Below are positions 1,254-27,047 of a DNA stretch of 64,000 nt, piece after piece (the stretch's first letter is position 1; the number at the start of each line of letters is the position of its first letter). The translations under genes and the position numbers were made by a program. Source of the stretch: Gemmatimonadota bacterium (lineage in GTDB: Bacteria; Gemmatimonadota; Gemmatimonadetes; Gemmatimonadales; GWC2-71-9); assembly GCA_029262195.1 (NCBI GenBank), contig JAJCZX010000024.1, positions 1,323 to 65,322 of the forward strand, written 5' to 3'. A model generated the notes under the pieces. That model saw only the letters and a program-made list of their open reading frames with translations, was not told where the DNA came from and did not search any database.

Positions 1254-1306
1254 GGAACGTCCGCCTCTTTGTGATTATCGAAAGGTCTGTTTGCGGCCAC
1301 GATCTG

Positions 1307-1363
1307 GTGTTTGACCGCCGGGCGGGAGTCGTGTTTGACCAGGCGGGTACCGGCACCTATATT
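1307..1363 (+). promoter_or_regulatory. Putative sigma70-type promoter for the large operon (TTGACC, 17 nt, TATATT) with an upstream second copy of GTGTTTGACC
   Basis: GTGTTTGACC occurs at 1307-1316 and again at 1331-1340, a 24-bp register. The second copy supplies TTGACC at 1335-1340, and TATATT sits at 1358-1363 after a 17-nt spacer. The element lies in the 278-bp divergent intergenic region, about 170 nt upstream of the first ORF. Confidence 0.4.
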
Positions 1364-1531
1364 TGCCGCGCCAACCTGATGTGTCAACCTACCGTTGCGA
1401 TATGTTTCGCGCCTTGCGGGAGAGTTGAACGCGTTTCAATCGTCCGCGGATGTGCGCGGAGCGGCCGCCTCTAACTGGCCAAGATGTGTGTTTGGTGTGG
1501 CTTAGAACCGGATATCGAATCGCTGTAATGG

Positions 1532-23628: not shown

Positions 23629-25628
23629 TGCGGAAGCCTGGTGACGTCCCCGGAGACGGCTGGACCTTGTGTGTTCCAATCCCGGGCCTAATACCAGAGC
23701 CCGATCTGGGGCTGCTCGCGGAGATTGCCGCGCCCGCCTTACTGCTCTTGCTCACGACCGCCGACGAAGCAACGATTTCGCTACACTCCGACCAACGCGG
23801 AGTTTGTATTTCCCTCCCAGGTTTTCTCGACAGAGACCATGCGCGTTGTGTTGAACAAACGTTGCTGGCTATGATCGGAACCCTCATGAAAGGCTTGGCC
23901 GACGAGGGAGTCCCGCAAGCGCTATTGCGTTGTTCTGAGTTGGTTTCCTCTGGCGACCGGGGCTCCGTGAGTGTGCCCACCCATCGGGCTGGAGCATTGG
24001 TGCTGCGTGCCGGCAGGATGACACCGGTTGCCACTTGCGACGGAAAAGACCCGGCGCGTGTCGTGCCGGTGCAACAGGCGGCAACCGTTCTTTTTCTTTA
24101 TGCGGAATCGACCCTTCGCAAAGCCGTTACAACCCAGGAATTTGAAGTCCTTCGAGCCGCTCTTCTGGGCGAGCTCCCACTGCCCATCGATATTCTAGCC
24201 CCCCCCCAAAGGGTTCCCCAAAAAATCTTCAAGCAGGACGACGGTGGTTTTGACTACCCCGAGTATGAAAAGCACCCCGAGCCTGAATTGGATCTTGAAC
24301 CGGAGCCGGAGCCGGAGCCGGAGGCAGAACCTGAACCCGAACCGGAGGCTGAGGAAAAGTGCTGCGACCATGCCCTGCTGCCCCCCCTGGCCTACAGCCT
24401 GCCCACCTTTGCGGCTCGCGATTATGATGATATTGACGCGAAACTCGATAAGCTGAAAGAGGCGGGATTCTGCGTTCTCAGCCTTACGCCGACCTATCGA
24501 GTCACCACGAGGCTCATGAACTTTGTTTATGACAACAAGCGCCTTCGGGGGGTAGTACAGATTGATGATCAGGTGACACCGTCTAAACAGGTGCTCACGA
24601 ACGTTGTCCGAAAGGCAATTCGCCGCGGCTTCCATGTTCGGCTTGAGCCGCATGTCGATGCAGATATCGTACTTGCCGGAAATCAGGAGTATTACTGGCG
24701 GGCCCAATTGATGATCGATCCGCAACCCGCAGGACCCTATTTTTCGCTTGTGGTCCAAAGGTCACTTGAGATTTTTGAGGCGGTTAAAGATGAGCTACTC
24801 GGAGGTGTACCAGACTGTCACCCGTGCTTTTGGCTGACTATCGGTTCTGAGTTGGAAATGTCCACCGTTGCCTTGCCTGATAGCTGGCTCGCGGCGTTGA
24901 CCCAGGCTCGGCGCGAAAGAACTCGGATGGGTCTAGACGGCAGGTTGGCGTTGATCCACAAGGTGAACCACGACTTCAACGCCGCCCAAACGCTTCCCGG
25001 TGGTCAAACGCGCACCCGCATGGATTACTGGATTGACTTTGCCAACGGTCACAATCGTGAGATCAATGCTACGGCACCACTGCTTACGAGTGCAGCCCAG
25101 CTGCCGAAAATCGGACGGTATCTAGGTCAACTCGATCACATTGGGATTAGCTTCTATCCCGAACTGACCGGACCCGAACGACCGCCGCCCGAACGCATTC
25201 CAGGTGAGCAATGGCGTACCGATCCTACTCCCGCCCGAGTTTCTCGTATCGCCAGCCTTATGGCCCGGCGCTTCGACGGCATGCTCCATCGGCCTTTCCA
25301 GGGCTTGGGTCGGGTCCTCGAACTTTCGGAATGCGGCATTGGAAGTCCGAATCCTTCGATTCCCTGGGAGGCCTCTAATCCACGTTCGATGGACACCGCG
25401 GAAGGCCGTAACGTCAGGCTGCATTATATCCGCGCCCTCTTGGAATACTTGCGCAACAACAAACAGCGTTTTACTTCACCCAATGGTTGTCTTGAGTATT
25501 CACCGGTGACCTTCTGGACCGTAATGCAATTTGATTGGCTGGGCGTTTCTGCCGGCGGCAGGAGATTCCGCCACCCTGATGTTATTGATGAGGTTCGCCG
25601 GTACAATCGTGAGACATTTGACGATTAA
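23625..25628 (+). CDS. Two-part protein (667 aa): N-terminal domain paralogous to the PAD protein's N-domain, a Glu-Pro linker, and a C-terminal (beta/alpha)8 glycoside-hydrolase-like domain
   Basis: There is an ATGA overlap with the upstream stop. The N-domain strings AEIAAPALLLLLTT, GVPQALLR, QQAATVLFLYAESTLR and FEVLRAALLGELPLPID parallel AEITAPALLLLLAT, GLPPSLLR, QQTATVLFLHAETALR and FEVLRAAVLGELSLPVD in the PAD protein. In the C-domain, the strand-end pattern FCVLSLTPTY / FHVRLEPHVD / CFWLTIGSELE / HIGISFYPE / VLELSECGIG resembles clan GH-A TIM barrels with two catalytic Glu. This is a tentative call. Confidence 0.7.
   Translation: MMRKPGDVPGDGWTLCVPIPGLIPEPDLGLLAEIAAPALLLLLTTADEATISLHSDQRGVCISLPGFLDRDHARCVEQTLLAMIGTLMKGLADEGVPQALLRCSELVSSGDRGSVSVPTHRAGALVLRAGRMTPVATCDGKDPARVVPVQQAATVLFLYAESTLRKAVTTQEFEVLRAALLGELPLPIDILAPPQRVPQKIFKQDDGGFDYPEYEKHPEPELDLEPEPEPEPEAEPEPEPEAEEKCCDHALLPPLAYSLPTFAARDYDDIDAKLDKLKEAGFCVLSLTPTYRVTTRLMNFVYDNKRLRGVVQIDDQVTPSKQVLTNVVRKAIRRGFHVRLEPHVDADIVLAGNQEYYWRAQLMIDPQPAGPYFSLVVQRSLEIFEAVKDELLGGVPDCHPCFWLTIGSELEMSTVALPDSWLAALTQARRERTRMGLDGRLALIHKVNHDFNAAQTLPGGQTRTRMDYWIDFANGHNREINATAPLLTSAAQLPKIGRYLGQLDHIGISFYPELTGPERPPPERIPGEQWRTDPTPARVSRIASLMARRFDGMLHRPFQGLGRVLELSECGIGSPNPSIPWEASNPRSMDTAEGRNVRLHYIRALLEYLRNNKQRFTSPNGCLEYSPVTFWTVMQFDWLGVSAGGRRFRHPDVIDEVRRYNRETFDD
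24276..24356 (+). repeat. GAR-CCN hexanucleotide tract encoding a (Glu-Pro)n linker in the hydrolase-like protein
   Basis: The DNA reads cccgagcctgaattggatcttgaaccggagccggagccggagccggaggcagaacctgaacccgaaccggaggctgaggaa. It translates to PEPELDLEPEPEPEPEAEPEPEPEAEE. Confidence 0.9.
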
Positions 25629-25667
25629 CGTAAACGGCTCCCACCTCCCTCGCCTTGTCGGTTTGCG

Positions 25668-27047
25668 ATGAAAAAAAAACGTAAACACAAAGGGTCGCGA
25701 CGCCTTGTCGGGGGAGTGGTGTCCTACGAAAGGTACACAGCGACCCTGGGACAGGTTCGGCTACACTACACACTGAATGATCGATACAAGTTCACCTGCG
25801 TTTATCGGATCCCTGGTTTTGATCCTGAGACGACCCCGGGCTGGGAGACTTTCGCATTCCATCTTGGATTGGCGCACTTTCCTGCCGTGTTCGCTGGATT
25901 TGCGCCTGCCTCCGTCGTGGTTAGAGCCGGTTTCCTCACCGCACCCCAATTGCGACAATGGACTACCTGGTATGAAGAAGGGTTAGCTGAGTTTTGTTTT
26001 AGAAACCACCTCCCATTCGAGGTGGTTTTAACCAGCGAAGGCAATTGCACCCACATCCCTTCGACGCAATCGTTGTCCGAAAGAGCTTTGGTTTTTCATG
26101 GGGGCGGAAAGGACTCCAGTGTCTCTGGGGCGTTCTTACGCGACCTGGGTTTTCCTCATACGTGGGTCCTCCTCGGTGGTTCACGGACCCAACGTTTTGC
26201 GACACGATCCGAGTTGCGTGGCGCACCAGCCGATCGCTGGATTGTGCGCCGCAACAAGAGCGCTCGGGTACGACGCCTGCGAGTGTTTCGGGGTCATCTA
26301 CCGTTGAACATGGAGCTTGCATTTCTCGGTGCGTTCCTCGCTGAGGTGCAGGGTTCCCGCTATGTCGTTGCATCCAACGAACGGAGTGCCAACGCCCCTA
26401 ACCTGGTGGTGGATGGACGCTCCATTAATCATCAATACAGCAAGAGTTTCGCCTTCGAGATGTCGTTCGATGCTTACAGTCGGGATTGGCTGAATCCGGA
26501 TACGCGGTATTTTAGTCTGCTGCGACCCCTGTTTGAGGTACAGATCTCCCGCCTGTTTGCCAGCATGTCCGAACTACACTACGGTTTCACGAGTTGCAAC
26601 AGAGGGGTGCGTCGAGGGCGCTGGTGTTGCCGTTGTGCCAAGTGCGCTTTTGTTTTTCTGGCTCTTTACCCGTGGATGGAAACAAAGCGTTTGACCTCCA
26701 TCTTTGGCCGGAACCTACTTGATCGGCCTCGATTGGTGGGCCTATACAGACGACTCACCGGAGTTCAGGGTTCCAAGCCATTTGAATGTGTCGGCACCGT
26801 TGAGGAAACCGCCGCCGCCATGTTGCTTGCGGCGCGCAACTCGGCTCCGCCTTTTGTTGTCCGCCATTTTATTTCCAATGAGCGGCAGATGCTCTCTTGC
26901 TCGATGCCCGAGGTGCAACAGCTGTACGATTCCTTTGACGACCAACACCTGCTGCCAGCCAAGTGGGAGGAGGGATTGCGAAAGTGGGTATCAAAACGTC
27001 TCTCTGGGGAAAGCGCTTCTCCTAAGCCTTACTTGTTCAGCGGATAG
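25668..27047 (+). CDS. PP-loop (adenine nucleotide alpha-hydrolase superfamily) ATP-pyrophosphatase-like protein with a C-terminal Cys cluster (459 aa); last gene of the operon
   Basis: LVFHGGGKDSSVSG matches the SGGxDS PP-loop motif. A later cluster reads SCNRGVRRGRWCCRCAKCAFVFLALYPW (CxxCxxC). The ORF starts 39 nt after the previous stop. The N-terminus MKKKRKHKG is encoded by an A9 run, so the exact start is uncertain. Confidence 0.65.
   Translation: MKKKRKHKGSRRLVGGVVSYERYTATLGQVRLHYTLNDRYKFTCVYRIPGFDPETTPGWETFAFHLGLAHFPAVFAGFAPASVVVRAGFLTAPQLRQWTTWYEEGLAEFCFRNHLPFEVVLTSEGNCTHIPSTQSLSERALVFHGGGKDSSVSGAFLRDLGFPHTWVLLGGSRTQRFATRSELRGAPADRWIVRRNKSARVRRLRVFRGHLPLNMELAFLGAFLAEVQGSRYVVASNERSANAPNLVVDGRSINHQYSKSFAFEMSFDAYSRDWLNPDTRYFSLLRPLFEVQISRLFASMSELHYGFTSCNRGVRRGRWCCRCAKCAFVFLALYPWMETKRLTSIFGRNLLDRPRLVGLYRRLTGVQGSKPFECVGTVEETAAAMLLAARNSAPPFVVRHFISNERQMLSCSMPEVQQLYDSFDDQHLLPAKWEEGLRKWVSKRLSGESASPKPYLFSG

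Follow-up and report, generated by a model that had tools for sequence, protein, structure and literature searches.

A conserved giant-protein cassette and a rare set of candidate protein-tail-modifying enzymes in one gene run of a Gemmatimonadota bacterium

Introduction

The described systems that come closest to the locus reported here are the RimK/S6 and TTL/tubulin ligation systems, the MurD2/MurL pair of Xanthomonas, the protein-arginine deiminases (PADIs) of bacteria and animals, the Tc (ABC) toxins, and the cytoplasmic glycosylation loci for surface and spore appendages. The locus is a run of 13 consecutive open reading frames (ORFs), read from the sequence on the plus strand at positions 1532–27047 (25.5 kb) of a 64,000-nucleotide (nt) stretch of contig JAJCZX010000024.1 from a Gemmatimonadota bacterium (NCBI GenBank assembly GCA_029262195.1). 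This whole stretch is referred to as the window, and the ORFs are lettered A to M in their order (Table 1). On balance, we lean towards regarding the region as two functional units arranged head to tail, the first a cassette built around two giant proteins and the second a rare set of enzymes for the modification of protein tails. Unit 1 would then somewhat more probably than otherwise comprise positions 1532–15693, perhaps reaching 16638, and unit 2 positions 16876–27047.

The logic of unit 2 could be described as that of RimK/S6, TTL/tubulin and MurD2/MurL combined. As in the first two of these systems, the products of genes H and I pass the family thresholds, and the chemistry predicted from their sequences is the ATP-dependent addition of amino acids to a C-terminus or to a glutamate side chain. 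There is, however, no S6-like or tubulin-like target evident here, the ligase function is spread over a protein of 391 amino acids (aa) and a three-module protein of 837 aa, and the 185-aa N-terminal domain (hereafter the N-domain) that relatives of H and I carry elsewhere is not known in RimK or in the eukaryotic TTLs. MurL carries out the ATP-dependent inversion, from the L- to the D-form, of a terminal glutamate added by a partner ligase (PMC8788868). Protein M belongs to the same family and is encoded beside amino-acid ligases, which would suit the same ligase-then-epimerase logic, but it scores only 226 bits where 700 are required of a MurL equivalog, its partners are ATP-grasp proteins of the TTL and RimK type and not of the MurD type, and it does not lie in a cell-wall synthesis context. 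Should its substrate be a protein, the family would be put to a new use. Three-domain PADIs of animals and late cyanobacteria possess a cupredoxin-like domain, PAD_N. Forms with PAD_M and PAD_C, and without PAD_N, are known in cyanobacteria, actinobacteria and proteobacteria (Cummings et al., 2021, PMC8826395). Protein J shares the PAD_M and PAD catalytic domains and the motifs of the bacterial and animal enzymes, whereas in place of PAD_N it has a TTL-associated domain and a Glu-Pro linker, both in common with its neighbour L. In the literature searched, no description of such a PAD fusion or operon context was found.

Unit 1 resembles the Tc toxins in that several very large proteins are encoded together, lack classical signal peptides and are distributed patchily across phyla. 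There is, however, no similarity in sequence or structure, the subunit sizes and small partners differ, and the conserved partner here is a glycosyltransferase and not a toxin domain. None of the domains of Tc, Rhs or contractile injection systems (VRP1, SpvB, TcdB_toxin_midN, RHS, sheath, tube, baseplate) was matched in proteins A to D by Pfam. The likeness to cytoplasmic glycosylation loci lies in multi-domain GT-A/GT-B enzymes without signal peptides, in some RMNT_CmcI methyltransferases and in small Asn/Ser/Thr-rich proteins, but it is a likeness in logic only. Neither a carrier protein family nor export genes nor genes of a known glycan pathway were identified. Unit 1 falls outside every class tested, namely Tc toxins, injection systems, defence systems, phage modules, capsule loci and LysM proteins. 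No prior description of either unit was found in the literature searched, the coverage of which was incomplete, and the four- to five-gene cassette appears to be undescribed.

Results

Conservation of the Giant-Protein Cassette

The homologues of protein D are nearly all full length, mostly of 2200–2450 aa with 95–100% query coverage, and come from at least nine phyla. They are found in Erwinia, Brenneria, Raoultella, Klebsiella, Citrobacter, Xanthomonas hortorum, Burkholderia ubonensis, Microbulbifer, Azospirillum and other Alphaproteobacteria, as well as members of the Acidobacteriota, Gemmatimonadota, Actinomycetota, Bacteroidota, Chlorobiota, Calditrichota, Planctomycetota and Verrucomicrobiota. 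On plasmids, only more distant relatives of D were seen (in Nostoc, Paenibacillus and Mycetohabitans), and the cassette is absent from complete E. coli genomes.

Synteny was assessed in 65 species-level loci and several others, searched with all 14 window proteins. A homologue of A lies directly upstream of that of D in 67 of 70 loci, and the small proteins encoded between them are likewise constant in position: 48 loci have the C family, and B is represented by two families, one in 25 loci and a second, B-like one in 18 more, all of them always between A and D. The full order of proteins of ∼1200, 95, 165 and 2350 aa followed by a glycosyltransferase of 900–960 aa is seen in Erwinia, one NCBI assembly and two JGI metagenomes, and a glycosyltransferase of 880–1150 aa comparable to E follows D in many loci. 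When the gene after D was tested in 23 loci, GT2 was matched in 15, Glyco_transf_7C in 11, GT1-like domains in 5 and methyltransferase domains in 5. The cassette of Xanthomonas hortorum is without a glycosyltransferase, and in three loci a gene for an RMNT_CmcI-type sugar O-methyltransferase stands beside the cassette. The conserved unit is A-B-C-D, usually with glycosylation genes.

The enzymes encoded further downstream in the window do not share this conservation. Homologues of the TTL (H), ATP-grasp (I), PAD (J), 219-aa (K), 667-aa (L), MurL-like (M), 166-aa (F) and 145-aa (G) proteins were all absent within 10 kb in the 69 other loci with the giant pair (tblastn, E ≤ 1e-5). A Pfam search of 82 genes downstream of cassettes elsewhere revealed no ligase, PAD or MurL, but only extra glycosyltransferases, methyltransferases and unrelated housekeeping genes. 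A previous reading of this DNA from the sequence only (the sequence-only reading) had tied the giant proteins to TTL ligation, RimK glutamylation and citrullination. With no such genes at the 69 loci, and the enzyme genes not syntenic with the giant pair elsewhere, an outcome which that reading had itself listed as refuting, the proposal finds no support in cross-genome comparison, whereas the link it drew between the giant proteins and glycosylation persists in the large multi-domain glycosyltransferase directly after the D homologue in many genomes. Only glycosylation is tied to the giant proteins by conservation, the other modifications resting on adjacency in one genome, and the survival of this one link illustrates the limits of single-genome adjacency.

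In about two-thirds of the related loci, the cassette is flanked by one to three tandem paralogous proteins of 120–250 aa that are rich in Asn, Ser and Thr, with many N-x-S/T motifs and no signal peptide. It is plausible that these small proteins are glycosylation substrates or subunits. They lie, for example, at positions 3965–5491 of locus L001, 4976–5371 and 17571–17990 of L003, and 16606–18109 of L056. No such accessory protein was found in the whole 64-kb window.

Some related loci have features of their own. In a sub-family represented by loci L053–L070 (Sphingomonas, Terracidiphilus, Labrys and others), a single protein of ∼3400 aa contains A-like and D-like parts, and its gene is followed by two or three paralogous genes for ∼240-aa proteins with no Pfam family. 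At the closest NCBI relative (L074, 20780–22944), a PatG-like subtilisin with macrocyclase domains and a 76-aa ORF follow the cassette and glycosyltransferases, a possible ribosomal-peptide element. Beside the cassette, L002 has an integrase, a PIN/PhdYeFM toxin-antitoxin pair and ParA (22354–26324), and L003 has an Rhs protein and a transposase (22042–27203); such mobile-element and conflict genes near some cassette loci are consistent with horizontal spread.

Table 1. Features of the gene run and the region upstream of it, with coordinates in the window.
Feature	Coordinates	Strand	Basis or remark
Divergent two-domain glycosyltransferase	1..1253	-	ATG at 1253, runs off the window; 417 aa visible
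Divergent intergenic region, 278 nt, presumed two-way promoter region	1254..1531	.	sequence read; no ORF
Gene A, 1203-aa cassette protein	1532..5143	+	conserved, without named family
Gene B, 94-aa cassette protein	5143..5427	+	start overlaps stop of A
Gene C, 154-aa cassette protein	5431..5895	+	conserved family between A and D
Gene D, 2377-aa cassette protein	5909..13042	+	197 homologues
Gene E, 883-aa multi-domain GT-A glycosyltransferase	13042..15693	+	Pfam GT2, DxD motifs
Gene F, 166 aa, N-terminal hydrophobic signal or anchor MVRNKMTSVVGLLGMVGFMIAAWSC	15686..16186	+	locus-specific
Gene G, 145 aa, Cys-containing (CxxC pair and four more cysteines)	16201..16638	+	locus-specific
237-nt gap, boundary of cassette and enzyme block	16639..16875	.	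sequence read
Gene H, 391-aa TTL-family ATP-grasp ligase	16876..18051	+	PF03133
Gene I, 837 aa, three ATP-grasp-like modules, the last RimK-like	18048..20561	+	PF08443, L071/L072 alignments
Gene J, 804 aa: shared N-domain (20558-21112), acidic Glu-Pro linker, PAD_M, PAD catalytic domain	20558..22972	+	
Gene K, 219 aa, possible helical repeat	22969..23628	+	weak HEAT_2 match
Gene L, 667 aa: shared N-domain (23625-24191), Glu-Pro linker, 430-aa C-terminal domain	23625..25628	+	
Gene M, MurL-family ATP-dependent epimerase-like, PP-loop motif	25668..27047	+	NF041275

Proteins of the Cassette

Proteins A and D matched no family in Pfam, NCBIfam, PADLOC or PHROGs, and no relative in the PDB was found for either, by single sequence or by family profile (31 sequences in the profile of A). 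Profile searches agree here with the sequence-only reading, in which the giant proteins had no nameable motif. Protein C likewise has no named family in Pfam or NCBIfam. A and D were considered as paralogues, an idea rejected as no homology was found by BLASTP or hhalign. The name LysM that some databases give to homologues of D was also rejected: Pfam found no LysM in D of the window, three homologues so named (P0091, P0022 and P0072) gave no LysM match even at E ≤ 1, and only a partial 26-residue match was present, in a distant Paenibacillus relative of D. A PADLOC search of the window's unlabelled proteins returned no defence-system match, PHROG matches were limited to glycosyltransferase families and two uncharacterised ones, and no link of the cassette to phages was found in phage genomes, viral contigs (IMG/VR) or BFVD folds.

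A short motif, D/N-x3-W-L-x4-G-x2-LP, recurs on a predicted helix in B, in C and at the N-terminus of D, which suggests that a small module may be common to the three. Homology between C and the D N-terminus was not detectable by BLASTP, with only the short motif visible. Protein B of the window ends in an acidic tail, DENDESQSDQEGW (5383–5427), whilst most B homologues have a Lys/Arg-rich end. An acidic C-terminus is the kind of tail that TTLL and RimK enzymes extend.

In protein E, Pfam placed GT2 at residues 9–111 (3.6e-26), a GT2-like domain at 622–816, and Glyco_transf_7C. Three DxD motifs are present (FDDDDW, MDSDVF and MDCDII), and the middle region between the GT2 ends is DxD-bearing; of the triple GT-A glycosyltransferase named in the earlier reading, the GT2 domains at both ends and this middle region are thereby confirmed.

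AlphaFold models of D, built with 50 homologues, were of moderate quality for residues 1–1200 (predicted local distance difference test, pLDDT, 72.9; predicted template modelling score, pTM, 0.46) and good for residues 1181–2377 (pLDDT 80.1, pTM 0.68). The N-terminal half is modelled as a small mixed domain resembling B and C, then a beta-rich core at ∼190–560, then helical segments. This core is the most conserved part of the family, the alignment of which has 70 invariant columns, and contains six strands of 17–21 residues in which hydrophobic and polar residues alternate more strongly than anywhere else in D. The C-terminal half is predicted to be a chain of Ig-like beta-sandwich domains into which helices are inserted. 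In Foldseek the N-terminal half drew no specific match, its only matches being outer-membrane barrels and lipid-transfer sheets, and the C-terminal half gave a generic likeness to the beta-sandwich arrays of integrin legs, complement C3 and mastigoneme proteins, at template modelling (TM) scores of ∼0.1 in both cases. Judging by the models, D brings together a beta-sheet core that is invariant and strongly hydrophobic on one face, a middle part made of helices and a long Ig-like arm.

The Enzyme Block and Its Shared N-Domain

Protein H scored 54.3 bits against the PF03133 cut-off of 20.1 (E 1.5e-14), which places it in the TTL family, and among PDB chains it is closest to the tubulin polyglutamylases TTLL7 (1.5e-9) and TTLL6. 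In protein I, RimK (PF08443) was matched at residues 628–711 (2e-07, 31.2 bits against a cut-off of 21) and an Ins134_P3_kin ATP-grasp match was obtained at residues 353–417; the RimK-like domain encoded in L071, a metagenomic locus described below, aligns with residues 4–203 and also with residues 234–473. A word-indexed protein search with I matched only itself, although a homologue of 34% identity exists in a second such locus, L072. Protein J is of the PADI type, with strong Pfam matches to PAD (3.2e-78, 263.9 bits) and PAD_M (1.2e-12, 48.2 bits), and its residues 254–804 match human PAD1 and PAD4 in the PDB at ∼1e-67. It keeps the GHVDE and HCGTN motifs, the residues of which presumably have the roles established for PAD4. 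No PAD_N was matched in J by Pfam; its residues 1–185 are instead homologous to the N-terminus of L and to domains fused to TTL. Protein K gave only a weak HEAT_2 match, at 0.006, below the cut-off, and no other family in NCBIfam, PADLOC or PHROGs.

Protein M matched the NCBIfam MurL model (NF041275) at 5.6e-67 with 226.2 bits, below the equivalog cut-off of 700, and precomputed Pfam annotation assigned MurL_N and MurL_epimerase_C, making it a family-level relative only. No Mur ligase domain, as in a MurD2-type partner, was found by Pfam in the 13 ORFs. These assignments bear out the sequence-only reading for the TTL-like ATP-grasp (H), the triple ATP-grasp with a RimK-like end and two further ATP-grasp-like modules (I) and the animal-type protein-arginine deiminase (J). 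Its PP-loop ATPase (M) does have the HGGGKDS motif, but is more precisely a MurL-family protein, and its label of TIM-barrel hydrolase for L found no support, the C-terminal 430-aa domain having no sequence match in Pfam, NCBIfam or the PDB. Of the two proteins encoded ahead of the block, F has no family match in Pfam, NCBIfam, PADLOC or PHROGs and no homologue in 72 related loci, and G has no Pfam or NCBIfam family and no homologue in related loci.

The N-domains of J (residues 1–185) and L (the first 189) are 41% identical (E 3e-22), and in both proteins a linker of Glu-Pro repeats follows, such as EPEPEPQAEPEAEAEPEAEPEPEPEGE (window 21170–21320, 24260–24340). The linkers also gave spurious matches to trypanosome procyclin and phage DarA. 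Only 18 relatives of the N-domain were recovered when 1.84 billion representative proteins were searched exhaustively with a profile. Where these were examined, the domain is followed by TTL in 10 of 10, and by RimK too in 3 of 10.

A metagenome scan with a 5-sequence alignment recovered only two loci. In the metagenome contig L072, a TTL gene, a homologue of I and a gene beginning with the N-domain stand in the same order as in the window, and the homologue of I is full length, with 34% identity over 879 aa. L071 encodes an N-domain-TTL-RimK fusion, the TTL part of which is 33% identical to H, with no giant genes nearby and with cobalamin and molybdoenzyme genes around it. The fusion gene there overlaps the start of a gene for a sedolisin-type peptidase (Pro-kuma_activ and S8) and lies beside a GT2/Glyco_transf_7C gene (9596–15768), a layout that hints that ligase, peptidase and glycosyltransferase work together elsewhere.

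Layout of the Gene Run

All 12 junctions of the run were re-read from the sequence and agree with those given before, as does the tight packing on one strand; the earlier count of fourteen same-strand ORFs, on the other hand, is reached only by including the divergent minus-strand glycosyltransferase. The start of B overlaps the stop of A (TGATG, 5141–5145), as that of E does the stop of D (TAGTG, 13040–13044), E and F meet at ATGGTTAG (15686–15693), and ATGA junctions occur at 18048, 20558, 22969 and 23625. The remaining gaps are of 3 nt (B/C), 13 nt (C/D), 14 nt (F/G) and 39 nt (L/M), leaving the 237 nt between G and H as the sole sizeable break. On the plus strand of this break, neither a sigma-70-like promoter nor a terminator-like site was predicted, matches in the promoter and terminator scan being not above shuffled expectation, and an Rfam search of positions 1–28500, which include it, found no family.

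Because most of the ORFs are matched by homologues elsewhere, they are considered real genes and not chance. A public gene call made independently on the same DNA, in a sequencing-run assembly, has the same products of 2377, 883, 166, 145, 391, 837, 804 and 219 aa, and starts L one codon and M 17 codons later, giving 666 and 442 aa. The TTG start of gene A is supported by alignment with 30 homologues, and the guanine plus cytosine content is even over the region, at 0.55–0.60. In line with the sequence-only reading, the run lacks the marks of a capsule or exopolysaccharide locus: none of the 13 ORFs matched flippase, polymerase, chain-length regulator or export ABC/OPX families in Pfam or NCBIfam, and capsule or export genes are not a conserved feature of the other cassette loci.

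Discussion

In the two-unit reading, A, B, C and D would assemble into one large protein structure, which the glycosyltransferase may decorate, or it may decorate the small Asn/Ser/Thr-rich proteins of other genomes. The glycosyltransferase has no signal peptide and is therefore probably cytoplasmic, and unit 1 has no signal peptides, with no export genes in the operon. In unit 2, H and I would, by the chemistry of their families, attach amino acids, with glutamate the most likely, to a carboxylate on a target protein; the residue now at the terminus may be adenylated by M and inverted to the D-form, and J would convert arginines of the same target to citrulline, with the shared 185-aa N-domain, on its flexible acidic linker, bringing J and L to the target. 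The order of these reactions, the substrates and the assembly of unit 1 are proposals that go beyond the observed gene structure, families, unit 1 synteny, domain sharing and partial unit 2 synteny.

That the enzymes form a unit distinct from the cassette is suggested by several observations. The only real gap in the gene run falls exactly at the unit boundary, and the enzyme block behaves as a separate module, with its own N-domain, its own partial synteny (L072) and an occurrence without giant genes (L071). That the target of unit 2 is a product of unit 1 is possible but rather unlikely; the argument for it is adjacency across the 237-nt gap, and conservation gives it no support.

Several points weigh against the division into two units. 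As the 13 genes lie on one strand, with no terminator or promoter predicted in the gap, the genes may have a single transcript and a shared function in this organism, and because unit 2 is so rare, with 18 relatives of its marker domain, its absence from 69 loci is weak evidence against a lineage-specific link. There are only two other contexts of unit 2, one of them a 3.7-kb fragment. The glycosylated assembly is a conjecture drawn from how large the proteins are, how they co-occur and the glycosyltransferase conserved with them. Confidence in the model is only moderate for the N-terminal half of D (pLDDT 72.9, pTM 0.46), and F and G, unique to the locus, can be assigned to neither unit.

The arrangement could alternatively be one integrated system, along the lines of the sequence-only reading, with all 13 genes co-transcribed. 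The giant proteins, as substrates or scaffold, would be glycosylated by E and given extra amino acids by H and I, while M epimerises and J citrullinates them and the N-domain docks J and L onto them. Such a system would account for the single strand with its overlapping or near-overlapping junctions and for a 237-nt gap with no predicted terminator-like site; glycosyltransferases are genuinely conserved partners of the giant pair, and a shared N-domain on a flexible linker does resemble a docking device. The tail of protein B in the window, acidic and of the type extendable by TTLL and RimK enzymes where homologues are mostly basic-ended, would even offer a target, but it is a single observation. 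Genes H to M were found in none of the 69 other cassette loci, and in L071 the N-domain is fused to TTL/RimK ligases at a locus without giant genes, so that we consider integration rather unlikely. The enzyme block may instead make or tailor a small peptide or a peptide-bearing metabolite, such as a D-Glu-terminated oligo-glutamate or a compound like a cell-wall precursor, with the ATP-grasp proteins as L-amino-acid ligases and the MurL-like protein fixing the stereochemistry. The sole characterised role of MurL is indeed on a nucleotide-sugar peptide, after an amino-acid ligase (PMC8788868), many ATP-grasp enzymes are ligases of free peptides, and the translational coupling of the L071 fusion ligase to a sedolisin-type peptidase would suit peptide processing. 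The best-scoring relatives, however, modify proteins (TTLL7, TTLL6, RimK, PAD1 and PAD4), PADs of the J type act on peptidyl-arginine in proteins, M reaches 226 of the 700 bits with no Mur ligase in the operon, and enzymes that act on small molecules seldom carry a 185-aa targeting domain on a long linker, making a small-peptide product improbable.

Very improbable, in our view, is a delivery or toxin machine in which the giant proteins are Tc-like subunits and the TTL, polyglutamylase and PAD are effectors against eukaryotic tubulin and histones, loaded by means of the N-domain and linker. It is true that an N-domain shared between proteins, a flexible linker and an enzymatic C-terminus resemble polymorphic effectors, and that the closest characterised relatives of the enzymes act on the eukaryotic cytoskeleton and chromatin. 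The cassette, however, is almost always without such effectors, the N-domain occurs without the cassette, and no similarity in sequence or fold to Tc, Rhs or contractile injection systems or to pore-forming toxins was found. The six long amphipathic strands of D are of a kind seen in membrane-inserting proteins, but one-sided hydrophobic sheets are normal in soluble proteins too. A patchy, horizontally scattered cassette, with integrase and toxin-antitoxin genes near one locus, would also fit a toxin.

The cassette comprises ∼3,800 residues of conserved protein without a family name, a solved relative or a proposed function. Besides many phyla without cultured members, it occurs in Erwinia, Brenneria, Raoultella, Klebsiella, Citrobacter, Xanthomonas, Burkholderia and Azospirillum, which can be cultured, and this makes it conserved dark matter that is genetically tractable. 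The composition of the enzyme block suggests that bacteria combine TTL/RimK ligation, MurL-type epimerisation and PADI citrullination on one target via a shared targeting domain. If the three are combined on one protein target, this would be a second, protein-directed role for the MurL family and the first genomic context for bacterial PADIs, with a bearing on the origin of animal citrullination; should the cassette itself be modified by the unit 2 enzymes, this would be a bacterial counterpart of the logic of the tubulin code. The fullest version of the proposal remains speculative and is held with low confidence: a large glycosylated assembly, so far unrecognised and present in at least nine phyla, would here have been fitted with TTL/RimK ligation, D-inversion and citrullination, which act via the docking domain to tune its surface or stability.

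Neighbouring Genes

The divergent glycosyltransferase upstream has no homologue beside the cassette in other loci; Pfam matched GT2 on its N-terminus (3e-06), a weak EpsD-like match was given by NCBIfam, and two DxD-type motifs are legible (YDDGSD/LPDDV and CDDDL). Downstream, the genes at 27450–46251 are unrelated, and encode a metallo-beta-lactamase-fold protein, a penicillin amidase, a DUF3179 protein, two MacB-type permeases, an outer-membrane efflux protein, an HlyD-type adaptor, an RND pump and a class C-type beta-lactamase-family protein.

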